Program-made: the position numbers and the translations under genes
Assembly (NCBI GenBank): GCA_964187785.1
Contig: OZ076409.1
Coordinates: 51,834,001 to 51,898,000 of the forward strand
Source: Amphiscolops sp. MND2022
Taxonomy: Eukaryota
Reading direction: 5' to 3'
Length of the DNA: 64,000 nt
Notes under the pieces: generated by a model
What the model saw: the letters and a program-made list of their open reading frames with translations, nothing else
Databases searched by the model: none
Told to the model about the DNA's origin: nothing
Shown: piece after piece, positions 14,052 to 49,335 of the stretch
Layout: each line of letters opens with the position of its first letter
Position numbering within the stretch: the first letter of the stretch is position 1

Positions 14052-14289
14052 AGAGTTAAAACAATATTTTACTGCCGTCGTTTGGGCACCGGGGACATTA
14101 AAAAGCGGTTATTCGGTTCGCAGAAAAGGAGAGTCCAGGTTGGAAGTTGGACAGGATCGTCCTGTTTTTCCGTTGCCTATGGGAAATTAATTTTCTAACA
14201 GCGTCGATGATGATGATCTGCGAACCGAATAACCGCCTTTTGATGTCCCCGGTGCCCAAACGACGACAGTAAAATTTTGCTTTAACTCT
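14052..14289. mobile_element. Small foldback MITE with ~72-bp TIRs
   Basis: 14052-14123 is the near-exact reverse complement of 14217-14289. Confidence 0.85.
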
Positions 14290-14598
14290 GTCTTCGAACA
14301 GCAGGAGGATGTCTATTAGCTGGTCGATCGACCCTGGTTGATAGTTTTTGCTTCTTTTGGGCGAAATTGTATTGTTTATAACGTCGGGCCATATAATAAT
14401 AAGGGTAACTTTACTGAGAGATCCTCGAGTAAGAAGGTTTTGAAAAATGTTTTGACTGTTGATGGCTTTATCGTTGAAGCTAAGCCCTGGAACCGAAAAA
14501 CAGCTGCGAACAAGAAATTTTTTAGTATTGTAAGCAATAGAATCAAGAGTTCAACACAATGAACTAGCGCCAAAAATGAAAACCATGAAAGTAGTCAT
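14283..14598 (-). pseudogene. SGNH/GDSL-like ORF remnant downstream of CR1 ORF2
   Basis: Manual translation MTTFMVFIFGASSLC*TLD...CFSVPGLSFNDKAINSQNIFQNLL...IIIWPDVINNTISPKRSKNYQPGSIDQLIDIL aligns by eye with the ORF at 40521-41211. Confidence 0.65.
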
Positions 14599-15229
14599 GA
14601 ACGGAACGGGGTGCGTGCCAAATGATAAGAATAAAAGGAACGAACTAACTGTTTTTGATAGAGGCCGAATTGGCACGACAAACCAGCAGAAGAGTCCCAG
14701 AGACCAGACAGTGACGATTGTTTAGAGCCCGAGTCAGTGGAAAGTGAACAATCAATCCAATCAATAACTTCTCTGAAACTATCCAACAAGTTTATCTTAA
14801 CAATTAGGCTGGTAGAACCAACGTTTGAAAACGTTGCGATGACATACTGGTTTGAAAAGTAATCATATGTAAGAAATATCTTCAAACGCATCTCTTTCTC
14901 TCAAAATTCCTACAGTACAGACTGCATCGTCGATCTGAAGAGCCAAATATATAAACTTCTTCAAATAACCCAATGATTGATCAATTCATCAACCCATTCT
15001 GTCAACCCTTTTGTCGCCCATGTGACCGACCGACGCCATTTTATCGCCAAAATGGCTAGTGCCGAAGGGTTCCTGACCCTGTCTGCTTTATGAGAGACTT
15101 TAGCGTAACCTGACGTCAGAAGCGACCACCCCTCTCTGTAAAACAAATGCACCACGTTTTGTTTGTTTGTTTTTGAGGGTTTGCAGAAAAAAGCAGAAGG
15201 GCACTGGTCACGATCATGAAATCTTGAAA

Positions 15230-18200
15230 AACGTCCACTGGTTTTCGCACAAGTTGCAATCACCATTTGCCATGTGCACACCAGTTTTTCAGAGAATCCT
15301 TTGTTGACAAATTCCGCTATCGAGCGGATAATTCTGTTATTCAGTCTGATAATTTTTCTGAGATCTGTGTATTTGTTTACGCAATTTGAAATTTTGCACG
15401 TACAAAACGTGATTTCTCTTCTTTCTTTTTTAAAGCATCTTCTGGGCAAAACAAAGATTCCGGTTGATCTTCCACCAGGTCTCTTATGATTTGGCTGAAG
15501 AGGGCTGCATCTTCGACGGCGGCAATCTTGGTCATGGTCAGGATATCACTCAGTTTAACATATGTAAAGGTAATTTAATTAGCAGACAAAGTTGGTTTAT
15601 GAAACTCGCAACCTTCAACCCGGTGATCCACATCACCACCTTCTTCTGGAACTGCTATAGTAAGTGTAAGTCAGCTCTTGATGCCAATACACATATGAAA
15701 CCGTACAACAGAACTGGCAATATCAAGGATTTGTACAGACTGAGTTTCATGTACTGTTTTTACTTGTACAGCAACATTTCGATGTATCCAATAAAGGACT
15801 TTGTTGGCTTTTCTGACTCTGAATTCATAATGGTTTTTCCAAGAGTTATCTTTCTGAAAATAAATGTAGAGGTCCTTCACATATTTTGTTACGCCTAGTA
15901 CCTGGTTGTTTATTCTAAAGACAAAGTCCCTGCCTCTGACTTGCAATTTCGCACGTTTTGCCACTAACACCATTTCGTTTTTCTTTACCCAGGTTTCCAC
16001 AGCATGTAGGTCATCTTGAACGTGACAGTTGATTTGTTAGTAGAAAAAAGTTTTAGATCATCCTAGAAAAAAAGGGTTCGGAGAATACAAGGATCTCAGG
16101 TAGGTTATTTATTGGTTATACAGAAAAGTGGTGTCCCTAACAATGACTTTGGGACACACTTGTGGTATCAAGCGTTTTCGAACTGGTGAATTGGACTCTG
16201 GAAAACTGTTTTCTATTTTCCGGACAATTGATTATAATTCGAGTAAACATCTCCCGACTTCAATTTTTGCAACTTTGTGGATGGAATAGTAAGGAGGTAC
16301 CTTATCAAATGCTTTTGAAAAGTTCTATAAATTAGTCATTTTAATACTTTGATTCCCATCCAGTACTGTGTGGATTTTCTTCATGAAGCTCAGCATGTCT
16401 ATCGGGGTTGATCTTCTTTTACCAAAACTACTTTTGCGTTTGTGTCACATATTTGCCGAAATGCGGGTACAGAAATGCGTAATACCGCAAATTCGTACCC
16501 GGCGCAAAGAACCGAAACGTGAGTACTATGGTTTCATGGAAAGTAGATCTTTTCTGGACAAAACTATCTGATACACTGTCGAGAATGCTAGCTGAAGAAA
16601 AAATAACTGAAACCCAAACTGAATGGTATCTAAAAACGGAAATAAGAGCTAAAACAGAGAATTGTTTCTTGCGTCTGTCAAAACGCATAATGAACACTTT
16701 TTATAGTCTTCGATATCACTTCCATCACATTCTAATCCAATGTACTAGACATCAATGCGTTAGTTTAGTGATTACACAGTCTCATTTTAACCATATTGTT
16801 CAAAGTCCCAAATTCAGGTAAACTCCATTGGAACCACATTTGTGTGTAAATCTCAGTGTAGTTTCAAGTTAGTCTCTGTGTTGTCGAGATTGAAATGAAA
16901 TTCAAGGACCTTTGATGAAATACAGGTACTTTTCACATTATGGACTGCATATTCAGTGTATGCACACCTTTCCTTTCAGTCGAAAAGACCAGCACCCGCT
17001 ACAATTGGTTTGCGATCTCCGTTTCCGCTAGGTCTTTGCTCATGCTGGACCTCGGTTAGCAAGATGAGGAAATAGGCGGCACATGGGGCAGAGTAGAACC
17101 GGACGAATTGGGACATCCAAGGCAATTTTTGTCGCCAAATGATGTGAAATATGTTGAAACGTCAATAGAATATCATCCACCAAAAATTGGAACTGATCAC
17201 TTGCGCATACTTTTTTAGGAAATCCATCAAGACCTGAAATTTTCTAAAAACCATTGTAGAGGTCTGTAATTTATTCCTTCTTGAACCGGGAAAAGTATCA
17301 AACAATTTAGATCTAATTCTTGAAAGAAGATTCCAATCATGTCGGAATTGAATATTTTCCAGAAACAGATAATTCTTTAGATATTAATCGTTAGATACCA
17401 TTCTGGTCGGTCGACGATCTCTCATGATGTAACGTCTATCAATTTGGTGGCACCTGTTAGATTTTCTAAACACACGAACTGTGACACAACTGAACTTCCA
17501 GGTACCCAAAATTGGTTCAGAAGACGGTGCACGGATGAAAAAAAGGAGAAAATTCCAGCCCGTAAACAAAAACCACCTGCATAGAGTACCATTGGCATAA
17601 CCGAAAAGGCCCTGGAACACACAGTGCTGTGCATTTTTGCCCATAAAGATCCAATTCGAGAGTTTTGCAGATTTTCTCATAAAAAGTCGACATGCCCGGA
17701 ACCCGGAAGGAAATTGCAGACAAAGGAAAGAGCTGTTATGCAGACAAAAACTTGCTAAGACTAATTCAGATGTTTTTCTTGGCATACAGTATAATTAAAC
17801 AGCCGTAAATTGCAGGTGTAAGAAGTTGTTTGATCTGATCCCAAGAACTTTAGGAATAGTTTTTTTGTGCTTCTGAGACGTGTGCGGACAAGGATTGAGT
17901 GTCTCCTCTACGTGAGGAAGGTCCCCTAAGAGAACACTGTTGGGGCCAAAACTGATGTTCAGAGTTGTCGTAGGACCATGGTCTGCTGTCGAAGCAACCT
18001 ATGCATAATCACAGCTCCAGTATGTACTTCTTCTGCTTGACGTTACAACTCGATTAGTTTTTATCGCAACCACCGAGGGATCTATTTGAACGGTGATATC
18101 TTTTTCTGTTCACTAGAACTTGTGATTAGCATCTTCTAATGCATGATCTACTGCATCTATGTTCGATAGACTTAGTAATTAAATTCACGCAAGAAACGAA

Positions 18201-24643: not shown

Positions 24644-27339
24644 TGATACGTGTTCGACGAAGTGAATTTTCGACGTACTGAACAGTCCCCTTGAAGTTGC
24701 TTTTCATTTTATTTCAGAAGATCAATGTATGAAATAAGTGTTTCAATGACACTGTTTCTATAAATAGAGGTTTCTAAAATCCGTTTCGGATCTTGTTTGC
24801 TAATGCCTCTCCCCACGGAGTTATCGCCCCCTCAAAACATTTCGTAATTTCAGTGTAAAATTGATAGGTAATTCTTGTTCCGGTAAACATTCCGGACCGA
24901 ATTATTTTACCTAATTGTTATGATGGACTTGTTGGATAGCTTCAGAGATGGCAATGATTTGAATTTGAGACTAGACAACACTTCTGACGCTGTTTTGTTG
25001 GTTTTTCGCTGCACTGGGACTGAAAGAATCATCACAACCCGTTGAGATAATTATATTTATACTTCTATGTATCAATTCAAGGTTTCTTTTCATACACGGA
25101 TTGCTTCACTGCTGTTGTGATTGTTTTTTTTGGGGGGAGCTTGGCACACACCCAAATGTGGTATTCCTGCAATTGATTAGGTTTTGAGGTTGAGTTGTGA
25201 TGAAAAACAATGAAACCTGCAACGCTCTGAAGTGTCTGAAGCCCTTAAGGTTGATAGATGGGGTAAATTGTAGGCTATGCAACGGATGGGTTCAATTAAA
25301 ATGCGCCATTTTATTAAAAACGGAGGCCCGGAGCCTGTCCGAATTTAAATGTTGTATATGCTTCATAGTGAACACAATCCCTCAGTGTCACGAGGATAAC
25401 TTTAGACCTGACACCCTTTTTAATTCAGGCGTTGTTCACTGTAAAAGAGTTCCTTAACAATCACGGATCCCTCTAGCTGAAAACGTTGTACCTAAATTTA
25501 ATGATATTTGTGAAACCCCCACAAATATTTTCTTGTGGTGCATATTGCTCTCCTCTCTAAGCTCTTTTTTGGAAAAACCACCCCGAGGAGGTAGATGTCA
25601 GAAGTCATCACTCAATGCAATAATCAACGAGCGTGTTCGGGATGGTGTCATTCAGAAAAGACCGAAACGCGACAGAAAACCGCAGCAGAAAAGCAAGTTA
25701 TATCGACGACTGCATTCCATTTGCACTAAATTAGACGAAGGTAATGTTAAGGCCGGAATCAGAATGGCGGTAGATAACAAAAAGGTTGCCAATTTCCACG
25801 GTCGACAACTACGCAGCCCTCAAGCTTAAGCATCCGCAAAGGGAAACTTGCTCTATTCCGGACCCCACAGATATCGATGGTTTATCAACTTTGGAGATTT
25901 TCGTCCACAAGACTCTCGTGTCCTTCCCCAATGGCTCTAGTGCAGGGTTGGATGGTATTTCACCCAAAAAAATTTGTAGCATTTGACTGCCAAGTCCAAT
26001 GGGCAAACTGGACTGAATTTTCTCAGAGTCTTAACAAAACTTGTGAATGTGATTCTCGAAGGAAAAGTACCTTTCGATCTTCGGCCGTACTTCTTTGGTG
26101 CGAAACTAATTAGGCTGAAAAAGGCTGATGGATGACTTCCTCTATCGCTGAAGGCAAATTTTTTGGTCGGTTATACGCAAAATGCGCCGGAAACCATGCC
26201 TTCGAATCCCGTCAGGGAAATACGGAAGTCGACAAGTAGGTGTAGGCACCAAAAGAGGCGCTGAATTGGCCTCACATGTTTTCCGTTGTTTGATAGAAAG
26301 CCCCAGCCCAAAGAAAACGTAATTTTGAAAATTGACTTTGAAAACGTTTTCAATTCGATTACCTGACAATTCATGCCAGAGAAAACTTTTGAAATACACC
26401 CTGAAGTTCATAAATACTCACATTCGGCGTACAGTCAACCAAGTTTTCTTTTTTTACGGTGATTCAGTAATCAAATCTTGTGAAGAGATTCAGCAAGGAG
26501 ATCCTGAGTCTTCAGTTTTTTTCGGATTCCATTCAGGATCTAATTGACAGTTTGGAGTCGAAAAGAAACATTATGGTACCTTGACGATGGAAAGTTAAGT
26601 GATGATTACGGAACCGTTTGAAAGATCTTGAAAAACTTGTTGAAGCGGAAAAAACATGGGACTCAAAATTAAACCCACGAAATGTGAAATTTTTTCTTTC
26701 CTTTTTTTCCATCACTAAAAAACGCCGATCGACACGTTTAGCATCTTTCCAAAAACTTTGTCCCGGGATGAAAACAACAAAAAATGATGAACTTATCATT
26801 CTTGGTTCACCGCTCGGCCCGAAATCACGAGCAAACTTATTGGAAAAGAAAATCGATGAACTGGAAAGAGGTAATGGAATTGTTGAAAAACTAGATGCGC
26901 ACGATGGTTTTTTCATGTTGAAAATTTGCTTCATTCTGCCAAAGTTGTTGTACTTCCTAAGAACCAGTACACGTTTTAATCACCCACCTCTCATGGAAAA
27001 GTATGACAAAACCGTACGCGACGTGCTTACCAAAGTGTGTAACGTGAACTTCGACAATTTTCTGAGTACTCAGCTGGCTCTGCCCGCTGAAATGGGTGGT
27101 CTTGGGGACTTCCCGCCTTTTTGGCCTCAGCTTTTGGTGCAAGTGGCTTTCGCACGATGATTTTGTTGGAAACATTCGAATATGTTTCATTTACAAAAGC
27201 GCTTGAGGAATGGTTGAGATTACATATGAGAAATACATATAACCTAATGGTTGTATGTACACTTCAGATGAATGCTTATCGTATAGAAACTTCCTGCAGG
27301 GAGTGTTTTCCCCCACGACAATTCTATTCGATAATCCTC

Positions 27340-27906
27340 ATGCGTTATCACCTCTTCAAGACTTCGCCCACTCGTAACCTGATTATTACTGATTCACAAG
27401 GAAGGAGCCTGACGTTCCCTAACTTCAAGATTCTCGTTCTACCAAGTGCCCGAGTTGGAGACGTGAGACCCTTCTTACCTGCGAAAGGTCGGTTTGATCT
27501 GATTGTACTCTTCATCGGAGGCAACGACTTACCAACCGACAACACTCGAACTGTTGCAAGGAACATCTCTGACCTTGCCGTAGCAGCATCAGAAGTTGCA
27601 CTCATAGTCTTCGTTATTGCGGTTCCTCCTCGGCTAGACATTACTGACCAGGCCAAGGCATTGAATCGACTCCTAGAAGACAACAACGATCGCCGTTGGC
27701 TTTACAGAGGCATATCTCGAAGCATCTACAGCGTCGAAAAACACGCTACCCGAGACGACATCCACCTAGAGACTAGGGCTATTAGTGGAATTCGTTCCAT
27801 CTTGAAGAACCGAGTACTTCGGAAAGCCTTCTGCCGCCAGATCGACAAACAAGGTCACCCACGAACATACGAGTGCCCTCGAGGTCATTGCGCCTGCCCG
27901 CGCTAA
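27340..27906 (+). CDS. SGNH/GDSL hydrolase-like protein, 188 aa, open
   Basis: Block I LIITDSQG, block III LFIGGND, AVPPR, block V DDIHL, and a Cys/His-rich tail. The ATG lies 20 nt after the 5' LTR. Confidence 0.8.
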   Translation: MRYHLFKTSPTRNLIITDSQGRSLTFPNFKILVLPSARVGDVRPFLPAKGRFDLIVLFIGGNDLPTDNTRTVARNISDLAVAASEVALIVFVIAVPPRLDITDQAKALNRLLEDNNDRRWLYRGISRSIYSVEKHATRDDIHLETRAISGIRSILKNRVLRKAFCRQIDKQGHPRTYECPRGHCACPR

Positions 27907-27953
27907 GTCACGTAAGCTGGACTTGTCTTCAGGTAAGCGACTTTCCTGTTTAG

Positions 27954-28110
27954 GCTACTACGGTACCTTTGTTTGGCTATTCTGCTACTACGGTACTTCC
28001 TAAAGTTCCTCGTAGCTATCGACCATTCCGCTACTACGGTACTTCCTTAAGTTCCTGGTAGCTATCGGATGAGTCTGCTACTACGGTACTTTCTTAAGTT
28101 CCTCGTAGCA
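27954..28110. repeat. Four-unit tandem repeat in the Gypsy leader
   Basis: GCTACTACGGTAC at 27954, 27984, 28030 and 28077. Confidence 0.9.
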
Positions 28111-29265
28111 ATTGTCTATGCGCTGTATTTCCTCTTCTGACGCCCATGAAGTTCAAACCACCCGACTTGCCATCAAATCTTTCTCCCGAGAAATGGAAAT
28201 GGTGGAAGAAATGTTTCGAAGATGCTGACAAATTTGGCAACAGAGCGCTAAACAGTTCAAAACCAGCGCCACAACGGAATTGTGTGGAAAGCCGTTCAGT
28301 GCCTGCTACACTCCACAAACCGCTCACTAACTGACTCGGAAAATGTATTACCATCAGCGCTCTCGTTGATTCGGACACTTATCAATACCGTCACCAAGGA
28401 GAGCCCCCATGATCACTTCTTCTGTTTCAACCGCAGCGAGCCGCTGATCCGTCTTTCTAGTAGCGCACCTTGGCTCAGAGCAGACGCTCCCGCGTACCTC
28501 CGGAAATTTGTAAGGGCGAAAGACCAAGCTCCAGTTGTGCCTGTACAGATATCCGAAGTCATCTCCCCTCACCTTGCACGAGTCTCCTTTGGCGATGAAC
28601 GAGCTGACACAGTTTCTACAAGTGACCTCTCTCGGCGACCGCCGGATATTGACAATGAAGGAACAACCTCACAACCTGGAGGTTAATACAAAGACAAGGA
28701 GAACGATGTAGACATCAGAACATCGGGTCCTGACATCAGAATCGAAGGTGAACCACCTAAATCTGTGGAACCAATAAAGGAATCTCAATTCAACCCGGAC
28801 TCTTGTGCTCCCACCTTGCGACGCACGGCTAGGAACAGGAAACCACCTACATACCTGGGCGACTTTGTTTCGGCTATGAACTAGAGACTTTCGAAGCGAG
28901 AAGGAGTGTTATGAATGTAATATACATATGTACTTATTAATACTGTTATATAATGTCGTTGTGTTATTTATGTTAACATAATTGTTGTATGTATACTTCA
29001 GATGAAAGCTTATTGAATAGAAACTTTCTGCAAGTAGTGTTTTCCCCCACGACAGGAGCCAACATCTGCGTTGCGCATACTTGCCACTGTGGTAAAAGAG
29101 TTGAACGGGACGGTTTACACAGTCTTTCTTGCACCAAGTGCCAAGTGTTCTGGTCGCTTTTCACGTCTTGCTACTCTCAATTCTCTCATAAAGCAGACGT
29201 TGGGATCTCTCGGCTTGCCTTCAATGCTCGAACTGCGTGGACTGTACCGAACTGATGCAAACGCC

Positions 29266-29776
29266 AGGTGGCTGTGAATAGATCGAATGTTTTTGGTCGA
29301 AAGGACAGAGGTCGAACCTTTTGATCGAATGGAATGCGGTCGAATTTGATCGAAAAGTCTTTGTCTCTGAAACGTCCTTTCAAAAGCTAAAAAGTTTCGT
29401 TGTGGAAGCGAAAATATTATAATATGGGCAAAAGCTGTGTATGGACGCTCGCCCTCAATGTCGCAAAGACCAGCTCCCACTACGATCGCTTCGCGATCGC
29501 CGTTCCCGCTAGGGTCTTTGCTCCTATTCGACCTCGCTTAGCAAGATGGGAACATAAGCGGCCCCAAGGGGCCGCGTGGCACTAGAGGACTTGGGGACAT
29601 ATCCGAGACACGTTTCATACTTCTCTAGAAATATCTATCTGCGGCAATTCGATTTATTTCCCCAAAATCAAAATTTCGATCCGAGTTGTTTCGATCTCAT
29701 TCAAACTTTTGGTATGTCGACCCGAGGACTAACTCTGATTTTCAATTCCGTTCATTCGACCTTATTCCGCCCACCC
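29266..29776. mobile_element. Mutator-like MITE with 9-bp TSD
   Basis: GCAAACGCC is duplicated at 29257-29265 and 29777-29785. Termini are (A/G)GGTGG...CCACCC. It splits the KRP codons of the CRE endonuclease. Confidence 0.8.
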
Positions 29777-30372
29777 GCAAACGCCCAGAGGGTGTTACCA
29801 TGACTCCTTGGGAAATGGGTAAACAGCTGGTGTGGGATGTCACGGTTGTGGATGCTCTTGCACCGAGGCAGGGACGTTTCGTCACCAGCCATTTGGGCGA
29901 CAAAAATTTCAGCCCATTTCGACGACAATATTGTCGCCCAAATGTCTCGTAGACTAAATGGCCACATATGTTCACATACCCCTAGTGCCCTAAATGCAGG
30001 AGCGAAGCGGAGCGACGTGCCATTTGGCCATGCCTCAATGTTGCTACTTGGTGAAGGGAGCGAAGCGACCGAGCCATACAACAAATATGCTAACCTCTTC
30101 AAATCAAGTTCCATACAATCAAGTTTGAAGAAATTTGTTACATGTAGCCCAATTTTTTTAACCTTTATATCATAGCAGCTTTAAATTTTTTTTCTACTGG
30201 TTGACTGGGATAGTGGCTGGTATGAGTAGTTTGTTGTTTTTTTTTGTTACTGGGATAGTGGCTGGTATGGGTTCCCTACTTTCGTTGCAGACCACGGGTG
30301 TGTGTCTTCTCCCCTCAACAACACTTATAGCCTAATTGTTGTGATAAACTTATTAAATAGTTTCCGGTTGTG

Positions 30373-31185
30373 ATGCCTCCAAAAAGACAGACGAAGCAGA
30401 CAAACAGCAAAAGTGCAACTACTGACCTCCTACCCTGTGCAAAAGAAACGTGTGGAAAATGTGATGTGGAGGTAGTTGACGGGGATTCAGCCCTGGCCTG
30501 TGAACAATGCCTCAGGTACTTCCACGGGGTCTGCTTGGGCGTAAACAATGCTGTGGTGACGGCAATGGGGAATCTCCCTGGGTGCTACTGGTTCTGTGAA
30601 GAGTGTGATGGACCTCAGCGGGCTCGTGTGGATCTGCCAAAGGAAACTGAAAAGCTAAGTAAAATGGTTTCTCATTTGAATACATTAGTAGCAAAGATTC
30701 CTCCTCTTGAGATACCAAAAACTCCTGATTCATCGACTGCTAAAATAATGAATGTAATGACTGAAGATTATAAATGTCAAGTACGTATCTCTGGCATTGA
30801 AGAAACTCCTGAAAACACTGCATCAAAACAGATGATTAAAGATCAAGTTCAAATTGAAGAAGTCCTTGAGAAAATTGACTGTTCCTTCCCGATCAAAGGT
30901 GTAAGACGAATGGGCCGCTATTACCCAGGACGCAAACGGAAAGTTTTAATAACATTCCAATCACCATGGGAAGCACGGCTGGTCATTGCCAAAGCGATTG
31001 AAAATAACCTCTTCCAGGAACACAAAGTACTGATTACTCCTGGGCTTTCCAAAGAAGACGCATTGCGCGAGAAAACGCTCCTGCAAAAGAGATATGATAT
31101 GATACAGAATGGCACTGATTCAAAAACTTTGAAAATTAGAAAACTTAAACTCTACCAAAATGGCAAGGAGGTTCAAATTGAATGA
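30373..31185 (+). CDS. LINE ORF1 (PHD finger + RRM-like region), 270 aa
   Basis: CGKC..ACEQCLRYFHGVC..WFCEEC PHD; VRISGIEE, RMGRY..RKVLITF and a KIRKLKLY end typical of CR1 ORF1. Confidence 0.9.
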   Translation: MPPKRQTKQTNSKSATTDLLPCAKETCGKCDVEVVDGDSALACEQCLRYFHGVCLGVNNAVVTAMGNLPGCYWFCEECDGPQRARVDLPKETEKLSKMVSHLNTLVAKIPPLEIPKTPDSSTAKIMNVMTEDYKCQVRISGIEETPENTASKQMIKDQVQIEEVLEKIDCSFPIKGVRRMGRYYPGRKRKVLITFQSPWEARLVIAKAIENNLFQEHKVLITPGLSKEDALREKTLLQKRYDMIQNGTDSKTLKIRKLKLYQNGKEVQIE

Positions 31186-34005
31186 CTCACAAAGTTGGAA
31201 GAAAAAGTTTCTAAAATTCTCTACTTGAATGTGCAAGGTCTCTTATCGTTCCAAAAATGTATTGATTTACAAAAGCTTTATCTGACTGGTTCATATGATT
31301 TGATGCTGTTATGCGAAACCTGGTTTGACGAAAATGTTGAATCGATTATATTTCCTAATGACATCCCAACAGTCCTGAATCGAGCGGATCGGAAGGATGG
31401 TTCACATGGTGGTGTGGTGATATGTTCGAATACTTTGGATACATCTCCGGTCAAAACAAATTTCGACTTCGGTTGCGCTGTTATTTTCCAGAACTGCTTG
31501 GTGATAGTTATTTATAATCCTCCCCTGACCAGCAAATACCGGATAATGGATAAACATCTCCTCAATTTTATTAAATCGGTTATTTGCAAAGCTTTTTGGT
31601 CGGTCGAGAAAAATATCTTAGTGTTAGGCGATTTCAATATCCCTTCGATTAATTGGGCACTCTTTCCCGCTCAAATTCCCGAGGAGTACTCCGAAGTTTT
31701 CAATTTCTTCATTCACAATGGCTTTGATCAATTAATTCATCAAACGACCCATGACGGAGGCAATATTCTAGACCTTTGTTTTGCAAACTTTGACATTCAA
31801 TCAATCTCTGTGTCGGGAAAAAATTTCCAGTCTGACCACTTCGGAATAACTATTATTTTAGAAACTTTTCATCTTAAAAAGTGGGAAATGCCTCAATCCA
31901 ACTCAACCTTCTCCCTTACTCCAGATGCGGTGGAAAACATAAAGCTTGACCTATCTGACAATATATTTTCAATGGTACAGCCAAATTCCGAATCTACTTA
32001 TAGCCAGAATTGGTTCGATAATTTCGACGAAATTCTGAAGAAACACATGAGAAAGAAACGTCAAAAGCGTTTGAATCTACCGTTCTATTACACTTCGCAT
32101 TCGATTCACCTTTATAATCAATTGAAAACCCTTGCGTCTTCAACGAAAAATTACAACATATCAAAATTTATGTCAGTGAAAAAAGACCTCTTGGAGTCTA
32201 TTGAGTTGGATATCCATTGTTTTGTTAACCATTTTGTTAGTAACAACACGAGAATGCATGACTGTTATAATCTAGTCAGATCTTTCAAAAATTCTTCGTC
32301 CTATCCCTCAAAAATGACATGGGAGAAAAAGAATTTCTCTGGTAAACCTGATATTGCCAATGCTTTCAACGACTTTTTCTTTTGCCAATATCAAGAATGT
32401 TCAACTATCAAAAATTTCAACAACTTCGATGAATTAGAATTGAATGATGTTGAAATCACTCTAGATGAAGTGTACTCAGTTCTAAACTGTTGCACGAATG
32501 GAACTGGACCGGATGGTCTTTCTGGGTTTCTACTGCGACAGATTTCCAACGAATTTAGCATTCATTTTCTTAAATTGGCAGAACACATTCTCAGTACATC
32601 AATTTTCCCTGCAAACTGGAAAACAACTTTCATTAGACCAATGCACAAAAAGAAATGTAAAACGGTAATCGAAAATTACAGACCTGTAGCATCTTTATCC
32701 CGTCTTTCAATTTGTTTTGAACGGCTCCTTTTTAAAAAACTTTATCCCCACTGCTCAAAAAAGATATCCCATTTACAGCATGGGTTCATGAAAAGCAAAT
32801 CGATACAATCCCAATTGTTAATTCACTTAGATTACATATACAACAACCTCGACAGAGGAGATGAAGTTTTCACAGTTTATCTTGATTTCAGCAAAGCGTT
32901 TGATCGTGTTGATCATGAGATTTTATTGAAAAAGGTTGCCAGTTTTGGGATTGGTGGCAATATACTCAAACTCTTGAAAAGTTATCTCGAAGATCGTGAA
33001 CAACGAGTTAAAATTGACGACTGTCTCTCAACTGCCCTTCCAATCAAAAGTGGTGTCCCCCAGGGCTCGGTTATTGGACCTTTATTATTTTTAATCTTCA
33101 TTAATGATTTGCCTGGTGTTTGTGTCGACTCAATAATGTTACTCTTTGCAGACGATTCGAAAATCTCAAATGCTGATCCCATTGAACTCCAGAATGATCT
33201 TATAAGGATTTATAACTGGGCGAAAGCAAATAAAATGGAATTCAATAACACGAAAACTGAACTACTATGGTTTACTCTTCATCGCTATAAAATTTCTGAT
33301 AGACGTGTATTGGTCTTTGATTCTAAAGATATTGAGTTTTCTACGGTCCCTATTAAAGATTTGGGTATCAATTTTACGTCTGATTTGAAATGGTCAGCCC
33401 ACATCGATGTTCGTATTAGAAAAGCTTTTTCACGATTCATGATGTTAAAGCGGTCCTTACCGACTACCTTACCGGCTAATGTAAAATCACAAGTTTACAA
33501 ACTTTATATCCTACCAATAATCACCTATGGATCAGTCCTATGGTTTCCCAACAAGACTGATTTATCGAAATTAGAAGTCTTTCAAAATAAAGTTATTCGT
33601 TGGTTTGGACTTATAGATGATTATAAGGATCGGTTATTAGCCCTAAATTTGCTTCCCTTTTCTCTGCTGTTTCAGTTGAACGACCTCCTATTCCTACATC
33701 AATGTATTGTGAACGATTCTCCGATATGTTCAGGACTGCTCTACAAAGAATCTCTCCGCCATTATGACACCCGATTTTCATCACGAAAACTTCTCTTTAA
33801 AAAGAAAACAAGACTGAAGTCCACTGACAGCTTTTTCATAAACAGAGTTGTTAATCTAGCTAATTTCGTATCATCGAAATTCGAGATTGACTTCTTTGAC
33901 ACGACCTCATTTAAGCCTAAACTGAAAAATATTTTCCGAAACTACCTTAAATATGGCTATGATAAATCGGATTGTAGAAGGTTTTTGAAGTGCTATTGCT
34001 GTTGA
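31186..34005 (+). CDS. LINE ORF2 (APE endonuclease + reverse transcriptase), no ATG at its 5' end
   Basis: YLNVQGL, CETW, GDFN, LDL, SDH (APE); NYRPVA, DFSKAFD, GVPQGS, FADD, KDLG (RT); CYCC end. Confidence 0.95.
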   Translation, partial: LTKLEEKVSKILYLNVQGLLSFQKCIDLQKLYLTGSYDLMLLCETWFDENVESIIFPNDIPTVLNRADRKDGSHGGVVICSNTLDTSPVKTNFDFGCAVIFQNCLVIVIYNPPLTSKYRIMDKHLLNFIKSVICKAFWSVEKNILVLGDFNIPSINWALFPAQIPEEYSEVFNFFIHNGFDQLIHQTTHDGGNILDLCFANFDIQSISVSGKNFQSDHFGITIILETFHLKKWEMPQSNSTFSLTPDAVENIKLDLSDNIFSMVQPNSESTYSQNWFDNFDEILKKHMRKKRQKRLNLPFYYTSHSIHLYNQLKTLASSTKNYNISKFMSVKKDLLESIELDIHCFVNHFVSNNTRMHDCYNLVRSFKNSSSYPSKMTWEKKNFSGKPDIANAFNDFFFCQYQECSTIKNFNNFDELELNDVEITLDEVYSVLNCCTNGTGPDGLSGFLLRQISNEFSIHFLKLAEHILSTSIFPANWKTTFIRPMHKKKCKTVIENYRPVASLSRLSICFERLLFKKLYPHCSKKISHLQHGFMKSKSIQSQLLIHLDYIYNNLDRGDEVFTVYLDFSKAFDRVDHEILLKKVASFGIGGNILKLLKSYLEDREQRVKIDDCLSTALPIKSGVPQGSVIGPLLFLIFINDLPGVCVDSIMLLFADDSKISNADPIELQNDLIRIYNWAKANKMEFNNTKTELLWFTLHRYKISDRRVLVFDSKDIEFSTVPIKDLGINFTSDLKWSAHIDVRIRKAFSRFMMLKRSLPTTLPANVKSQVYKLYILPIITYGSVLWFPNKTDLSKLEVFQNKVIRWFGLIDDYKDRLLALNLLPFSLLFQLNDLLFLHQCIVNDSPICSGLLYKESLRHYDTRFSSRKLLFKKKTRLKSTDSFFINRVVNLANFVSSKFEIDFFDTTSFKPKLKNIFRNYLKYGYDKSDCRRFLKCYCC

Positions 34006-35995: not shown

Positions 35996-36712
35996 GTTAG
36001 TTGTTTTCATTTCGAGCATTACTGTCATGAAATCCTCATGAACAATAATGGCCAATTAAATTATCACTGCTAGATTTTTTCAGGTTCCGTTTAAAGTGTA
36101 TGGATTTTGATGAAAGAAGACAAGTTGTCCACTGAGCACCGGGATATTTTCTATCGCCTCAAGCGTAGCCGACATACTGCAAAATTTGCACGAAAAGTTC
36201 AAAAATTGAAAGTTCATTTTAGGCATGTTCTCTTCACAGAACATCAAAAGTATGTGAAGCTGCTAACTTTTCTGTCGTCCAACAAAAACTCAAAAAAAGT
36301 ATCAGAATTGCTCAAAACAGATTTTCGGGTTTTTTGGAACATTTGAAAAAAGAAAACGATCTAAAGAAATGAAACATGCCCGAAGTCAAACATTTGAAAA
36401 AAAAGTTCGCTTTTTGCGACGATTTGCTTTTTTGGTCTTAATTCAACTGTAGTTGTAATCTACGGAACAATTTATTTATATTGGATGAAAATTTGAACTT
36501 GCGGAATTCGACACAAAACGCAGCCGAGTTGGTTATATTTTTCTCATAAGGAGAATGGGCGGTAAATATCAACTGATCCGTTAAAACCTGATTATATAAG
36601 TGGTCATCGTTGATCATGAGCTGTTCCAACACCCTTTATTGAGACGCAGGAATAGAACAAGCCGGGAACGGCCCAAGTCGGCGCCATATCTAAGGCTCAA
36701 AAATAGCAAAAG

Positions 36713-39700
36713 TGTGACATTTAATTGTGTTTCATTTCAGTTTTGTATATGTCTGTGGTGGGGTTTTAATATATAGTTGAACACCAATCATTTGTTTTCA
36801 TGGTAGCAGAAGGTACATGGCGTCAAGCAGCAGTTTGAAAACCCCACCACTATGGGAAGATGGGAAGTCATTCGAAAAATGGAAGTCCGAAATGGAATTT
36901 TGGGCGTTAATAACAGAACTGGATAAAAAGAAACGCGGACCAGTAGTCGCACTTACTCTGACTGGAAGAAAACGCGAGATTGCACTCGAAATCAAAGCCG
37001 AAGATCTTAATAAAGATGAGGGCCTAAAAACATTACTAGACAAACTGAAATTGTCATTTAGACAAGACGAAACTGATAGAATTTTTGAGGCGTACTCGAA
37101 ATTTGAATCGATTAACAGAGGCACTAAAAGCATGGTGGAATATTTGCAAGTGTTTGAACGACAGAATGACGAAATAACCTCATTGGGGATAAAATTACCG
37201 ACAGAAGTATTGGCATGCAAGATATTATATTGCGCAAATCTCGACTTTAAAGAGCGACAAATGGCGCTTTCCGCCACTTCAAAATTGGAATTTGAACAAA
37301 TGAAGACGGCATTGAGAAGGATATTTGGAAGTAGCGAATTCAGCGAGATTCCAGACGCACCGAAAATTAAATCAGAACCGGCATTCGTGACAACTACTGA
37401 GTCTCAACAAATTGAAAGTGAAGAAATCGAAGAAAACTGTTATTGGGGTAGTAGAGGACGGGGGACTCGTGGACGTCCCTTCGTCAAAAGAGGAAATATG
37501 AGAGGAAATTATCGAGGAAGACAAAAAACTGGCACGAACCCATTAAACAATAATGGTATATCACAACATGTTCCATATGCGGATCAAGGTATCAATGGAA
37601 GCGTGACTGTCGCGAAAATCCAGAAAACAAGAAAGAAGAGGAAGAACCGCGTGGTTATTTAACATTCGCTACGATACCCGAGTCGGTAACCAAGGAGTGC
37701 ATGAAAATTGGAATTATCGACACCGGATGTACTATGACGGTCACTGGAGAACCATTGTACCAAGCTTTCTAATCACCAGTGAGTTTTGAAATTAACGAAG
37801 GTAGACCAGACAAGACATCTATCATTTTTGGCGATGGCAAGAAAGTTTTCGGTAGACGAAATGTCAAGATACCTGGTACAATTGGAGATATCAACTGTTT
37901 TATATCGGTTGAGATAGTACCGGTGAATATACCATTGCTGATCAGTATCAAATATTTATCGTTAATGAGTTCTCAACTCAATTTTTCTACGAACACTTTG
38001 GAATTATAAAATGGCTCACATGTTTCACTGGTAAAATTGTCCACTGGACATATTGGGATTGACATTAGTTCGACCGACAATATACGACCAAACGTCCTAT
38101 TTACAAAGAAGGAATTGGACAAGACAAGAGATGATGAAGTTACATCGACAATTTGGACACTGTGGTGTTGATCGTTTATGTAGACTAATAAACGCCGGAG
38201 GCGTAGCAAAGCGTAACGATATTCGAGAAATCGTGGATAATTGCGAAATTTGCGTCAAGTTTGGACGTCCGAAACCGAAACCTGCAGTATCGATGCCACT
38301 AGCATCCGAGATTAACGAGGTTGTAGCAATGGATCTTCATCAATTGAAACCGAGCGTATATTACATTCATTTTATCGACTTATTTTCCCGATACAGTCGT
38401 GCAGCTATTATATATGACAAATCACCGAGAACAATAATAGCATCTTTCATATCTGAATGGATATGCGATTTTGGTGTACCACAAAGTACCCTAACAGATA
38501 ATGGAGGTGAATTCGACAACCAGCATTTTCGATCAATGGCGGAGAATTATGGAATCCGTATAAAAACGACAGCTGCCGAGAGCTCATGGTCAAATGGTGT
38601 TTGTGAGCGACATAATGCAGTATTGACAGATATATTTTTGAAGCTCAAAGCAGACCAAACATGGGATATTCCAGATTCAAGCCTGATGAAGTATTGTTCG
38701 TTTGCAAAAAATTGTCTTTCCTATAAAGACGGTTTTTCTCCTCAGCAGATTGTTAGAGGGTATGCTCCAAGATTACCCAGCACACTCGACCAAAATCAAC
38801 CAGCCTTGGAAAACGTCACAACCTCGGATGTGATTGGAAGTCACCTAATTACGTTACACAAAATACGAGAGGCATACATTCAGTCCGAAAATGCAGATCG
38901 AATAAGACGAGCATTGCGAGCAAATATTCGTTGCAACGAAGAAAATTTTGATACTGGTGATTCAGTATTCTATAAACGTGAAAATGACAATGAATGGAAG
39001 GGACCAGGAGAAGTGATAGGAGTTGATGGCACGAATATCCTGGTGAAACATGGTGAATACGTTGTCAAGGTTGACGCAGTTGGCGACTCCATGCAACACG
39101 AATCGGATCAGGAAGATCTCGGTGAAAGTAAGTTATTGGAAATCGTCGGTTCTTCAGACGGAGAACCAGTACGGGAACATGTCACGTTCAAAACAGTCTA
39201 CGAATATGATCATGGAAATAATTTTAAAGGATTTGTGCTGAGTCGTGCTGGAAGAGCGAATAGCAAGCACAAGAACTGGCTTAACATTGAGTACACGCAC
39301 CCAGAATCGATGGCTGCTAATGCTAAAACAGGCCCAGTGGATTTTCAAATAGATGTTTCTGAATGGTCCTATGACGAAGCAGAAAATACAAAAATAGCTT
39401 TAATTACCATGGATGATGACTTCCACGAAGCAAAATTGGCTGAATATCAAAGTTGGATTTAAAAAGATGTATTTGAACGTGTTCCTGATGAAGGGCAACC
39501 AAGAGTGACTACACGTTGGATCTTAACGGTAAAGGACGATGGCAGCAGAAAAGCCTGCTTAGTCGCTAGTGGTTTTCTGGAAAACGAAGCTGAACTAACC
39601 AAAGATCCGCCGACAATTTTCAAGGAAACATTCCGCACTATGCTGGTAATTTTAGCCGCACAACCACGATGGCAAACAGAATTTTTGGACGTCAAAACGG

Positions 39701-41355
39701 CTTTTCTTCAAGGCGAGTCGCTATCACGAACTGTTTATCTAGCTCCTCCTCAGGGGATGATACATGCTTGTGGAAACTGAAGAAATGTGTTTATGGACTT
39801 TTGGATGCCTCGCGTCATTGGTATAACAGTCAAAACTGAATTATGTTCTCTTGGATGTCAAATGTCTTCCTTCGATTCATCGTCGTTTTACTGGAAAAAG
39901 GGCACAAATCTGGAAGGCATTATATGTGTGCACGTAGACGATTTCTGGACTCCTGGCACTGACCTATTTTTTCGACTCGTTGTGGACAAGTTAGCCACTG
40001 TGTTCACGATAGGTTCAAGAAAGAAGTTGCCATATCGATACTTGAAATTAGACATATCTCGAACTGATGAGGGGATTAAACTCTCAATAGGCGATTATGT
40101 CTACAACAAAAGTCTGGTTGATGCGGTGAAGTCTACAAAATCCGTTCAAGACAAGCGGTTGCGGGTAGACATGAGTCATCTGAAACACTTAGTGAACGAA
40201 CAAAAGGAATTGCAACTTAATTGGATTGCCTCGAGTAAACAACTTGCAGATTGTTTAACGAAAACAACAAGCGCTAATTATGGCAATCTGGAACGAATTA
40301 TCGGTGTTGTACAGGCGCCATCATTTGTGACTCCAGAGCCCTTTGACTAACTCGGAAGTTGCTCATTGACGGTGTTTGCGATTCATATGACTAATTTTAT
40401 CAATCGTCTGCACCAGAACAGTTAGCAATATATGAATCTACCAATATTTTTTATTCATTAATGGTGTTCATTCATCATTCATTTATCCCCTGCCAATCGC
40501 TTCAACGTGTTATTTTTCAGACTCACCATTGTTTATTTCCTTGGTGCCAGTGGATTCAACTTTGCATTCAAGTCATTGTCAGACTGGGATCGAAGACACT
40601 TTCAGTCACGTTATCCTTTTTCTCTGTTAAAGGTTTATCTTTCAACCCAAATGCCATTAACAAATCCAAGGACTTGAACGTACTGTTGAAGGATAGTTGC
40701 TTGAAGAACCACAAGAATTTTGTGATTCTCCCTGGAGTGATCAACAACACTATTTCTGCGCATCACAGTAATAACACACCCTACCCAGTTGACGATCTGG
40801 TGAACACCTTGAAAAAGTTAAAACCAAGAATAGCTGGAATCGTCTATTGTCGCCGTGAAGGTCTGCGTGATATTAGGGCAGAGCTATAATCCACTGACTG
40901 ACGAGAAACTGCCGAATATTGACGTGAAGAAACATCTTTTGTCATACAGAAAACGGCACAATCAACTGATTATCTCTGACGTAGCAAAGTTGCACCCTTC
41001 TGTCGAATTGCATCTGAATATGGTAGTTACTGTACTGGAATACCAGCACAATTTACGGCAACTTGTACGGCAAACTAGAAGCAAGTCGAAGAACAAGCCT
41101 TCAGCCAAACAACATGCAAAGCAGAAGCGAAAGGCACAACAACTCTTGAATAAATTGAGAATTTGTTTTCCCCTTTGTCAGATCCTAGTGACGCCAGAGT
41201 CTTTTGACTAACTCGGCTGTTGCCTGGTGACGACTGCGCTACATTTTTAAATTTTGTTTACCGGGAATCTGTGACATTTCATTGTGTTTCATTTCAGTTT
41301 TGTTTATGTCTGGTGGGGTTTTAATATATATTTGAACACCAATCATTTGTTTTCA
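36713..41355 (+). mobile_element. Ty1/Copia LTR retrotransposon, GalEa-like, defective (copy 1)
   Basis: LTRs 36713-36800 and 41270-41355 (TG..CA), PBS TGGTAGCAGA, AAAG flanking duplication. Domain order gag, PR (IIDTGC), INT (KLHRQFGH..C..C, MDL, TDNGGEF, SNG..ER), RT (DVKTAFLQG, HVDDF), RNH (QLADCLTK). Stops, frameshifts and an RT/RNH deletion. Confidence 0.92.
40521..41211 (+). pseudogene. SGNH-like extra ORF between RNase H and the 3' LTR (copy at 46412-47102)
   Basis: Across two frameshifts (~40620, ~40885): IVYFLGASGF..FSVKGLSFNPNAIN..VILPGVINNTIS..IAGIVYCRREG..DVAKLHP, followed by a basic tail. Confidence 0.65.
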
Positions 41356-41895
41356 AAAGGACTTCAATGTATCAAGTATTCTCTTCTACAGTACCCGCGT
41401 GAGGAACAAAATTGGAAAAAAAACGAAAACTTGCACAAAAAATTTTTGGTCATGCGCGGGACTCATGCCCACGTCCTTCTGCTTGGCAGGCATCACAAAC
41501 TATCCTAATTAACCTCTATGCTAAGTGGCAGTAAAAGTTACAAGTGTGGCAGTTAGTGGATCATGAAAATTGTAAAAAGTGGACCATTCAGAGTGAGATT
41601 GTCAGTTGAAAAAAACTACCCATTGTAATAGTCGGACTTTTTTTCCTTAAGGGAGAAGGCGCCGACTAAAAACAGAATTTCAACTTCTACTTGTTCTTGT
41701 TTATATCGCATTGGTCACTGCAAGTGAGCTTTTGTTCAGACTCAAAAAACTACGTCAGTTGCCAAACTTGAATTTGCAAATCTGTTTAAACACTACGCGT
41801 ATCATCAATTAGTTAATTGCATGTTCCTATGTTGGATTTTTTGGCTGATGATACAAAACTAAATACGAATTGTCATCTGTTGATATTGATTTCAG

Positions 41896-42074
41896 ACTAG
41901 TGGAACTGAGTTCCGAGTGAAGCTTACAGGTGTACAGTCGTCAGGACCTCATGGCTTTCACGTACATCAATATGGCAACTTGTTCACCAAAGACGAGGCA
42001 GGGTTGTGCAAAGGGGCAGGCGGTCATTACAACCCCGAAAATATCAACCATGGGGGGCCTTCTGATGCTGTCAG
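41896..42074 (+). CDS. SOD3: Cu/Zn SOD exon 3 (copy a)
   Basis: TTTCAG acceptor; TSGTEFRVKLTG..PHGFHVHQYG..CKGAGGHYNP..NHGGPSDAVR; AG|GT donor, phase 2; 179 nt. Confidence 0.92.
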
Positions 42075-42526
42075 GTTAACAAAACTGCCGCTTCAATCTT
42101 CAAATGAGTTTATCATTTTTGAATAACCAATTTCAAAATTAAATTCTCACATATTCGAGCAAAAACTTGATATAATTGTTTCTCCTGAAATACTAACGGT
42201 GCTACAGATGAGGCGGCAACTCATTTTCACAAAGTTTTGACTGAAAATTGAGTGAAAAAACTAAATCCTCATACGTCGAAGCGATCACGTTCATTCGAAA
42301 GCGGATCTCCTTTACCATCATTCGACACAAAACGCAGCCGAGTTGGTTATATTTTTCTCATAAGGAGAATGGGCGGTAAATATCAACTGATCCGTTAAAA
42401 CCTGATTATATAAGTGGTCATCGTTGATCATGAGCTGTTCCAACACCCTTTATTGAGACGCAGGAATAGAACAAGCCGGGAACGGCCCAAGTCGGCGCCA
42501 TATCTAAGGCTCAAAAATAGCAAAAG

Positions 42527-45500: not shown

Positions 45501-47246
45501 CCGACAATTTTCAAGGAAACATTCCGCACTATGCTGGTAATTTTAGCCGCACAACCACGATGGCAAACAGAATTTTTGGACGTCAAAACGGCTTTTCTTC
45601 AAGGCGAGTCGCTATCACGAACTGTTTATCTAGCTCCTCCTCAGGGGATGATACATGCTTGTGGAAACTGAAGAAATGTGTTTATGGACTTTTGGATGCC
45701 TCGCGTCATTGGTATAACAGTCAAAACTGAATTATGTTCTCTTGGATGTCAAATGTCTTCCTTCGATTCATCGTCGTTTTACTGGAAAAAGGGCACAAAT
45801 CTGGAAGGCATTATATGTGTGCACGTAGACGATTTCTGGACTCCTGGCACTGACCTATTTTTTCGACTCGTTGTGGACAAGTTAGCCACTGTGTTCACGA
45901 TAGGTTCAAGAAAGAAGTTGCCATATCGATACTTGAAATTAGACATATCTCGAACTGATGAGGGGATTAAACTCTCAATAGGCGATTATGTCTACAACAA
46001 AAGTCTGGTTGATGCGGTGAAGTCTACAAAATCCGTTCAAGACAAGCGGTTGCGGGTAGACATGAGTCATCTGAAACACTTAGTGAACGAACAAAAGGAA
46101 TTGCAACTTAATTGGATTGCCTCGAGTAAACAACTTGCAGATTGTTTAACGAAAACAACAAGCGCTAATTATGGCAATCTGGAACGAATTATCGGTGTTG
46201 TACAGGCGCCATCATTTGTGACTCCAGAGCCCTTTGACTAACTCGGAAGTTGCTCATTGACGGTGTTTGCGATTCATATGACTAATTTTATCAATCGTCT
46301 GCACCAGAACAGTTAGCAATATATGAATCTACCAATATTTTTTATTCATTAATGGTGTTCATTCATCATTCATTTATCCCCTGCCAATCGCTTCAACGTG
46401 TTATTTTTCAGACTCACCATTGTTTATTTCCTTGGTGCCAGTGGATTCAACTTTGCATTCAAGTCATTGTCAGACTGGGATCGAAGACACTTTCAGTCAC
46501 GTTATCCTTTTTCTCTGTTAAAGGTTTATCTTTCAACCCAAATGCCATTAACAAATCCAAGGACTTGAACGTACTGTTGAAGGATAGTTGCTTGAAGAAC
46601 CACAAGAATTTTGTGATTCTCCCTGGAGTGATCAACAACACTATTTCTGCGCATCACAGTAATAACACACCCTACCCAGTTGACGATCTGGTGAACACCT
46701 TGAAAAAGTTAAAACCAAGAATAGCTGGAATCGTCTATTGTCGCCGTGAAGGTCTGCGTGATATTAGGGCAGAGCTATAATCCACTGACTGACGAGAAAC
46801 TGCCGAATATTGACGTGAAGAAACATCTTTTGTCATACAGAAAACGGCACAATCAACTGATTATCTCTGACGTAGCAAAGTTGCACCCTTCTGTCGAATT
46901 GCATCTGAATATGGTAGTTACTGTACTGGAATACCAGCACAATTTACGGCAACTTGTACGGCAAACTAGAAGCAAGTCGAAGAACAAGCCTTCAGCCAAA
47001 CAACATGCAAAGCAGAAGCGAAAGGCACAACAACTCTTGAATAAATTGAGAATTTGTTTTCCCCTTTGTCAGATCCTAGTGACGCCAGAGTCTTTTGACT
47101 AACTCGGCTGTTGCCTGGTGACGACTGCGCTACATTTTTAAATTTTGTTTACCGGGAATCTGTGACATTTCATTGTGTTTCATTTCAGTTTTGTTTATGT
47201 CTGGTGGGGTTTTAATATATATTTGAACACCAATCATTTGTTTTCA
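42527..47246 (+). mobile_element. GalEa-like Copia (copy 2, from the tandem duplication)
   Basis: LTRs 42527-42614 and 47161-47246. The gag ORF 42631-43587 keeps the knuckle CSICGSRYQWKRDC and the protease motif in frame. Confidence 0.92.
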
Positions 47247-47786
47247 AAAGGACTTCAATGTATCAAGTATTCTCTTCTACAGTACCCGCGTGAGGAACAA
47301 AATTGGAAAAAAAACGAAAACTTGCACAAAAAATTTTTGGTCATGCGCGGGACTCGAGCCCACGTCCTTCTGCTTGGCAGGCATCAAAAACTATCCTAAT
47401 TAACCTCTATGCTAAGTGGCAGTAAAAGTTACAAGTGTGGCAGTTAGTGGATCATGAAAATTGTAAAAAGTGGACCATTCAGAGTGAGATTGTCAGTTGA
47501 AAAAAACTACCCATTGTAATAGTCGGACTTTTTTTCCTTAAGGGAGAAGGCGCCGACTAAAAACAGAATTTCAACTTCTACTTGTTCTTGTTTATATCGC
47601 ATTGGTCACTGCAAGTGAGCTTTTGTTCAGACTCAAAAAACTACGTCAGTTGCCAAACTTGAATTTGCAAATCTGTTTAAACACTACGCGTATCATCAAT
47701 TAGTTAATTGAATGTTCCTATGTTGGATTTTTTGGCTGATGATACAAAACTAAATACGAATTGTCATCTGTTGGTATTGATTTCAG

Positions 47787-47965
47787 ACTAGTGGAACTGA
47801 GTTCCGAGTGAAGCTTACAGGTGTACAGTCGTCAGGACCTCATGGCTTTCACGTACATCAATATGGCAACTTGTTCACCAAAGACGAGGCAGGGTTGTGC
47901 AAAGGGGCAGGCGGTCATTACAACCCCGAAAATATCAACCATGGGGGGCCTTCTGATGCTGTCAG
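47787..47965 (+). CDS. SOD3: Cu/Zn SOD exon 3 (copy b, duplicate)
   Basis: Appears identical to 41896-42074 with intact splice sites. Confidence 0.9.
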
Positions 47966-49272: not shown

Positions 49273-49335
49273 CAGGCTGACCACTCGGTCTATTTAGAGA
49301 CTGGTCAAAGTGAAACACGACTATTTTAGTGACTC

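Follow-up and report, generated by a model that had tools for sequence, protein, structure and literature searches.

SGNH esterases recur on many unrelated mobile elements, and the family described here bears on why they do. On LTR elements, such genes were already known from the 3' ORF3s of bdelloid rotifers (PMC5408684). In that paper, ORF3 of Vesta is a stand-alone SGNH frame that retains catalytic residues and resides on a Ty3/Gypsy element; such frames are spread over unrelated retroelement groups, vary neutrally among copies, and have a counterpart in a non-autonomous, cargo-keeping family, TelKA2n, in which the cargo is env. Each rotifer gene is found 3' of pol and makes up a spliced unit of its own, about 1.3 kb in size (PMC5408684), whereas the esterase described here lies between LTR and gag (or within a BEL LTR), spans 0.57 kb, is free of internal AUG codons and ends in a Cys-rich tail.

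ORF1p of ZfL2-1 (CR1/L2/RTEX/Penelope; structure 4c1b) is comparable in its SGNH fold, its basic charge and its location upstream of the replication genes, but is described as replacing gag, as including a coiled coil and as part of a non-LTR element (PMC3905857). In our case the esterase gene accompanies a true gag and does not take its place, no coiled coil was seen, identity to the ZfL2-1 protein is 21%, and the TM-score to the domain-swapped chain of 4c1b is 0.40. The OSK domain of Oskar (PDB 5a4a) also shares the SGNH fold (Z 13.4, rmsd 2.9, 154 residues aligned). However, OSK is non-catalytic, whereas in the family studied here S, G, N, D and H are retained and the resemblance to active esterases is closer.

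In searches of the open-access literature, we identified no SGNH gene located 5' of gag or within the LTR of a BEL element, no AUG purging in such a gene, and no self-priming in chromodomain-less animal Gypsy elements. The retrieved portion of PMC13524379 contains no mention of SGNH, esterase or self-priming, and those of PMC2774666 and PMC8556966 no mention of a PBS. In the retrieved portion of PMC7599744, the words searched for have no match outside the reference list.

The locus lies in a window of 64,000 nucleotides (the whole stretch of DNA that was analysed) from contig OZ076409.1 of Amphiscolops sp. MND2022. We consider it probable that it represents an old, deleted Ty3/Gypsy copy from a family with an esterase between the 5' LTR and gag, for which leaky scanning and self-priming are likely. 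What is of interest is the family, of which the copy in the window is no more than a fossil.

Anatomy of the element and its esterase

Judged by its sequence organization, the element is an old and internally deleted copy of a Ty3/Gypsy LTR retrotransposon (Table 1). The relatives of the integrase remnant (54-90% identity) have rve, Integrase_H2C2 and RT_RNaseH domains, and one of them (P0273) shows the domain order RT_RNaseH, Integrase_H2C2, rve, without DUF5641. The gag start matches a single protein, P0285 (55% over 76% of the query, E 6.7e-8). The sequence-only reading of this stretch had described gag-pol as reduced to a gag-start/integrase-end fusion. Both pieces are present, but they are in different frames and the integrase tail contains a premature stop; thus, their boundary is a DNA deletion junction and not a fusion protein. 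A tyrosine-recombinase (Ngaro) element was considered and discarded on account of the integrase, the polypurine tract and the TG...CA ends.

Table 1. Features of the LTR element and of the sequence that hosts it, in window positions
Feature	Positions	Strand	Description
Host, 5' part of decayed non-LTR retrotransposon	25458..27218	+	RT motifs KIDFEN, QQGD, YLDD and GGLG in shifting frames
5' LTR remnant	27240..27320	+	3' part, 81 nt; 5' part and adjoining host sequence lost; 88.9% identity to 28974-29054, 9 mismatches
Predicted self-primer	27276..27288	+	would be transcript 5' end; 12/13 nt complementary to 27322-27334; outer stem of predicted fold
Predicted self-priming primer-binding site	27322..27334	+	1 nt past LTR end; 12/13 to each LTR
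SGNH esterase ORF	27340..27906	+	188 aa, stop 27904-27906; AUG-free internally in all + frames; triad present, residue 36 substituted, Cys-rich tail
Splice-donor-like CAG/GTAAG	27930..27938	+	by sequence; shortly 3' of esterase stop; GTAAG also 3' of ORF in L001
46-bp tandem repeat	27979..28109	+	2.8 copies, in spacer ahead of gag
gag start	28146..28234	+	about 30 codons; P0285 match; internal deletion relative to P0285
Integrase C-terminal remnant	28258..28884	+	frame differs from gag; premature stop 28684-28686
Polypurine tract	28893..28906	+	13/14 purines, abuts 3' LTR
3' LTR	28907..29054	+	148 nt; TG...CA, imperfect 7-bp terminal inverted repeat
Host, 3' part of same non-LTR element	29055..29860	+	itself interrupted; restriction-like endonuclease motifs CHCG 29082, KRP 29779, WDVT 29833

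The sequence around the LTR element is a decayed non-LTR retrotransposon that we take to be CRE-like. A second decayed copy of this kind is present at 14961-15545 (-), and the host copy has been interrupted again near 29270-29740. No target-site duplication of the LTR element was found; its 5' junction is deleted. The LTRs differ at 9/81 positions (95% CI 5-20%), and because the 5' LTR is an 81-nt remnant with these mismatches to the 3' LTR, the copy is either old or recombinant. The LTR start fits seven of the eight letters of the Mag C 5' motif, but the 3' motif does not fit (Table 3 of PMC3601003), and we regard this as a lead only.

As claimed from the sequence alone, the esterase ATG (27340) follows the end of the 5' LTR (27320) by 20 nt, and the 188 open codons encode TDS (residues 17-19), GGND (60-63) and DDIH (139-142), then a Cys/His tail. 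A Pfam scan of the ORF product gave a weak Lipase_GDSL_2 match (E 0.007); the same domain is matched by 30/64 aligned family members, and P0100 is above the cut-off. An Atlas query with the ORF led to GDSL/SGNH clusters, and sequence searches of the PDB gave no significant match. A structure predicted from an alignment of 64 sequences reached a pLDDT of 89.5 (an earlier model from 18 sequences, with pLDDT 40.6, was not usable). It aligns with a sialic acid esterase (Z 16.9, rmsd 2.2, 156 residues) and with PAF-AH (Z 16.4), nearly all of the top 50 structural matches are SGNH esterases, and Foldseek pairs it with the ZfL2-1 esterase 4c1b at E 9e-4. In this model, the SGNH alpha/beta fold is present, which confirms the SGNH assignment.

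The description of this SGNH domain as intact needs one correction. The Ser-His-Asp triad is present, with S19 in block I, D139 and H142 in the Asp-x-x-His of block V, and N62 in block III is also retained, but residue 36, in the oxyanion-hole column of block II, is substituted in the window copy; it is conserved in 19/20 distant and 40/45 close relatives. The C-x(2-5)-C-x-C tail (27880-27903 in the window) is conserved in relatives, most of which also retain a His near the N-terminus. These cysteines and this His may bind zinc; the tail is outside the fold matches. The computed pI of the protein is 10.3. What PMC3905857 proposes for the ZfL2-1 esterase most probably applies here too, although only by analogy: a basic and slow lipid esterase would attach to acidic membranes and help the particles of the element to assemble there or to pass through.

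Copies, subfamilies and a BEL/Pao relative

An initial search identified 44 relatives among 151 candidates, all from ENA, and cluster listings added more, one of which is the window ORF. A profile search with an E limit of 0.001 gave 276 proteins. Among the best 150 of these there are at least dozens of esterase subfamilies near 40% identity, arranged in a star-like tree, in which Gypsy-linked and BEL-linked esterases form two separate supported clades. Some of the relatives derive from short ENA or Logan contigs. The counts given here leave out P0056 and P0269, which are the window copy, and P0179 and P0215, which are repetitive false matches. No relative was found in scans of viral contigs (with the esterase alignment and with P0273) or of genome contigs, and Pfam scans of 40 relatives with their extensions named no carrier element.

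The esterase ORF is consistently tied to these LTRs in other copies: 10/65 close esterase proteins extend back into the same LTR end, and 8/65 extend on into the same spacer. With contig size as a proxy for location, 10 of the 61 contigs with close esterases recur among the integrase relatives, versus none of the 28 for a distant subfamily (p = 0.018). The read-through and the co-occurrence with integrase relatives on contigs make the esterase ORF regular cargo of this Gypsy family. That it is the standing cargo of a multicopy Ty3/Gypsy family and not a domesticated gene is indicated by the equal rates of rare changes in esterase and integrase copies (see below) and by the substituted block II position of the window copy.

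Some copies are rearranged siblings: in P0044 the esterase start is joined to an antisense integrase tail, and in P0264 LTR sequence is joined to an integrase core. Members of the P0100 cluster (24 in number) are mostly full length and occur on many ENA or Logan contigs of about 1 kb, which may be transcripts or collapsed repeats.

Only one locus, L001, was confirmed among 292 metagenome candidates; its esterase is 43% identical to that of the window. The contig, of 1,689 nt, carries one LTR, and this is the one locus of its type that was seen. Its integrase end matches DUF5641 (E 3.4e-8, above the cut-off), which presumably places it in BEL/Pao. After the DUF5641 end come a TG start (near 170) and AATAAA (298). 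The esterase occupies 865-1461, and position 1541 has a TGG-type site that we take to resemble a tRNA-His site. Given this order, the ORF seems to be within U5 of a long BEL LTR, ahead of gag, and the LTR that apparently contains it would be about 1.37 kb. Two further proteins, both on long ENA contigs, have an L001-like context: P0034 is 89% identical to L001 and reads on to 1500, and the N-terminus of P0084 equals the LTR end plus the primer site. Since the same cassette is present in a BEL/Pao element, it likely moved between LTR superfamilies long ago. The presence of one gene on two LTR superfamilies and in dozens of lineages offers a natural experiment, in which the lack of AUG codons may serve as a mark of co-translation with gag and of the gene's worth.

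Absent AUG codons and a candidate self-priming site

Past the start of the window esterase there is no AUG in any frame over 564 nt, versus 12 on the minus strand (shuffle P 0.002). The L001 ORF likewise has none in 594 nt, versus 11 on the minus strand (shuffle P 0.001), and no AUG occurs across 719 nt until the next one, whose context is strong. Given the amino acids encoded, the out-of-frame AUGs expected in the window copy number 5.1 or 2.5 (P 0.0015 and, for the test with its own codons, only 0.039), and those in L001 6.2 or 4.8 (P 0.0005 or less), with none observed in either case. AUG is not depleted in five control ORFs. Internal Met accounts for 6 of 3,932 residues in 20 distant representatives, versus 1.5-2.6% for a set of four other window ORFs. 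However, Met is scarce in pol pieces of the same family too (3/460, 5/390 and 2/367, or 0.5-1.3%), and eight remote relatives are not Met-depleted (19/1,528).

If the RNA begins at the predicted self-primer, the esterase AUG would be the first, and its context is weak, with a pyrimidine at -3 and C at +4, as in L001. Two features of the window copy speak against scanning to gag: two AUGs in the spacer (28069 and 28118) precede gag, with a shuffle P of 0.04 when they are included, and the context of the gag AUG is also weak. The region upstream of the L001 esterase (320-864) is AUG-poor too, with 2 in 545 nt where about 10 are expected, and fits a long scanned leader.

Because this is a gene family without internal AUG codons, ribosomes likely scan through the esterase to gag, and the absence of AUG is likely a signature of leaky scanning. 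In the mechanism that we propose, the esterase gene would be the first ORF of the element RNA. Some ribosomes would leak past its weak start, cross the AUG-free body and reach gag, and Gag-Pol would be made in this way. The closest parallel is in ORFs I-III of rice tungro bacilliform virus, which are described as having weak upstream starts and hundreds of bases without another AUG before the capsid/polyprotein ORF (PMC3542737). That virus is a plant pararetrovirus with unrelated proteins, and its leaky scanning is experimentally established in the same source, whereas that between esterase and gag is deduced.

No TGG-type site follows the LTR, as the sequence-only reading had observed; however, a site of the self-priming type is visible. 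It starts one base past the LTR end, and its 13 nt are complementary at 12/13 positions to the predicted self-primer and again to 29010-29022 in the 3' LTR; the mismatched position differs between the two LTRs. For each of the four offsets tried, 20 of 61,988 control 13-mers equal this pairing. The predicted fold is a duplex of the 13-nt arms with an inner stem (z -3.5, for a segment picked after the match had been seen); wider segments gave z -2.35 and -1.8. In two older copies (P0006 and P0010), read-through peptides point to one change in each arm, at bases that pair with each other, a weak indication because it is deduced from amino acids and falls at a CpG site. In P0014 and P0282 both arms are unchanged at the paired position.

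A tRNA search found no tRNA, and Rfam gave no match. A TGGCAACAGAGCG stretch at 28234 presumably resembles a tRNA-Met site. We rejected it as a degenerate site of this kind because it is inside the gag start, far from the LTR end, and resembles the adjoining integrase sequence in a short local alignment.

The missing tRNA site has thus likely been replaced by a Tf1-type self-priming site of 13 nt beside the LTR. The element RNA would fold its own 5' end onto this site to prime reverse transcription. According to PMC10085805 and PMC6317226, self-priming is found in the Tf1/sushi chromoviruses, in Tcn1 of plants and in the TAR lineage of copia. Like the window element, Tf1/sushi elements have a site after the 5' LTR that is complementary to a stretch of the LTR, and an inner stem in U5 (PMC10085805, PMC6317226). 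Unlike the window element, whose integrase relatives gave no Chromo match (P0242, P0245, P0238, P0240, P0236, P0246 and P0273), they have a chromodomain. In addition, only two of the three 'pretzel' duplexes described there are in the predicted fold, and the LTR is just 148 nt. The window element may therefore work like Tf1 but is probably not a member of that group. If this is true, self-primed reverse transcription extends beyond chromoviruses to an animal Gypsy lineage, and 'PBS-less' elements discarded by annotation pipelines would be explained.

Two other arrangements of the 5' region would account for the same sequences differently. Splicing could bypass the esterase, as GTAAG motifs flank the ORF, or gag could be started by itself, and the lack of AUG would then serve only the unspliced RNA or be a by-product. 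We consider this unlikely. GTAAG is present at 27933 in the window copy, and in L001 the ORF would be enclosed by two such motifs (807 and 1500) together with an end at about 1529 that is rich in pyrimidines and acceptor-like; spliced messages also yield the rotifer ORF3s (PMC5408684). However, if the ORF were spliced out as an intron, nothing would favour the loss of AUG from all three frames, and no good donor was seen upstream of the ORF in the window copy. It is also conceivable, from the appearance of the L001 ORF inside an LTR of about 1.37 kb, that the true LTR of the window element is long, includes the esterase and is truncated at both ends. We give this almost no credence, as the 148-nt repeat follows a polypurine tract, starts with TG, ends with CA and has matching terminal 7-mers, and the primer site starts 1 nt past the end of this repeat. 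Leaky scanning from an esterase that follows a short LTR is the arrangement that we prefer.

Selection, carriers and neighbouring elements

Whether the esterase is retained under selection, as had been suggested, has a different answer for inserted copies and for active lineages. Rare residues occur at 334/7585 sites in 49 esterase copies (0.044) versus 158/3786 in 25 integrase copies (0.042; p = 0.90), after removal of close proteins with less than 84% identity or fewer than 60 aligned residues (16/65 esterases and 18/43 integrases). In the window copy itself, 8/188 esterase and 15/200 integrase-tail residues are rare changes (p = 0.20). Other copies thus carry disablements at a neutral rate, and selective retention is not supported for the window copy or its siblings. 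In a first pass, rare changes were fewer in conserved columns (63/2017 versus 271/5568, p = 0.001). With correction for codon mutability, 44 single-copy changes were observed in these columns versus 48-49 expected (p 0.4-0.56), and 49 versus 59-60 when changes in up to two copies are included (p 0.10-0.15); some purifying signal on inserted esterase copies may persist.

Only 21/65 close esterase proteins are full length, and all five catalytic positions are kept in 14/20 of the full-length close proteins tested. Because searches favour long ORFs, esterase decay is, if anything, undercounted. Between lineages, S19, position 36, N62, D139 and H142 are each kept in 19/20 representatives, at a median identity of 39%, and the three tail cysteines in 18-19 of 20. 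The comparison of the window esterase with L001 gives pS 0.85 and pN 0.41. From the neutral rate among copies and the catalytic residues kept between lineages, it appears that selection acted on transposing lineages and not on inserted copies, which decay, the window copy included. A comparable selection picture, with neutral variation among genomic copies, is given for the rotifer ORF3s (PMC5408684). The window copy appears to mutate like its dead neighbours, and the host likely does not maintain it.

It could be argued that the host keeps this particular copy as a working esterase gene, since its frame is open and its triad present although the LTRs differ at 9/81 positions, and since rare changes are less frequent in it than in the integrase tail of the same copy. 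We regard this as highly improbable. That difference is not significant, and 8/188 is the family mean; the 21 siblings noted above are full length too, the block II position is substituted, and the promoter-bearing portion of the 5' LTR is truncated. A much closer call, a little short of an even chance, is that the esterase resides mainly on a non-autonomous, pol-deleted subfamily that is amplified in trans by an autonomous partner without the gene, which is compatible with the explanation that we prefer. The start codon of the window copy's integrase remnant recurs in 7/14 non-self members of the closest integrase cluster versus 3/29 others (p = 0.007), but it may reflect the gene caller and is also found in three older relatives. 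By size, a proxy for location, 5/7 of the same-start tails share a contig with a close esterase versus none of 7 young relatives in which the integrase core or RNase H is retained (p = 0.021), and among all relatives the figures, by the same proxy, are 5/10 versus 0/14 (p = 0.006). TelKA2n, which keeps env without pol, is a similar case (PMC5408684). However, a search with the gag/integrase junction gave one gag relative (P0285) and not the junction, the view of the largest esterase cluster covered only the best 15 of its 30 members, two contigs (5846 and 5844 nt) with an esterase and a pol piece may be one locus and were left uncounted, and AUG purging is most sensible where gag is intact. 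The earlier proposal of a non-autonomous cargo carrier thus has indirect backing from contig sharing, with the junction itself not seen in other copies.

With the esterase taken as family cargo behind a short Gypsy LTR, a broader and more tentative scheme can be outlined, one that we think somewhat more apt to fail than to hold. The gene may be an ancient, portable, AUG-purged 'ORF0' esterase cassette that can be inserted before any gag without blocking its translation. It would have diversified into dozens of subfamilies and changed places between the LTRs of BEL/Pao elements and the leader of an animal Gypsy lineage that primes itself and lacks a chromodomain, where pol-deleted carriers would amplify it. 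LTR superfamilies would thus share it as an envelope-independent membrane accessory.

The sequence-only reading had also counted the esterase as another type of SGNH, the second one, on a retroelement of a third class. Confirmation was not obtained: neither the ORF at 14098-14550 (-) nor that at 40395-40889 (+) has an SGNH match in Pfam or a BLASTP alignment with the esterase family, and the hhalign probability is 0.3%, all of which are weak negatives. These two ORFs are degraded, are alike by eye, and are probably the ones that were meant. The second is a 164-codon ORF that recurs at 46286-46780, within a tandem duplication of about 5.8-5.9 kb (36500-48250, +) that is near 100% identical and in which a Copia-like element is represented by gag-like, integrase and RT pieces. 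An apparently intact LINE, with a PHD-finger ORF1 (269 codons) and an endonuclease/RT ORF2 (939 codons), occupies 30376-34005 (+). Nested tandem arrays with units of about 1.2 kb and 4 kb are present at 56700-63100 and 48590-54290, and dispersed repeats of 40-120 nt with inverted partners occur throughout the window.
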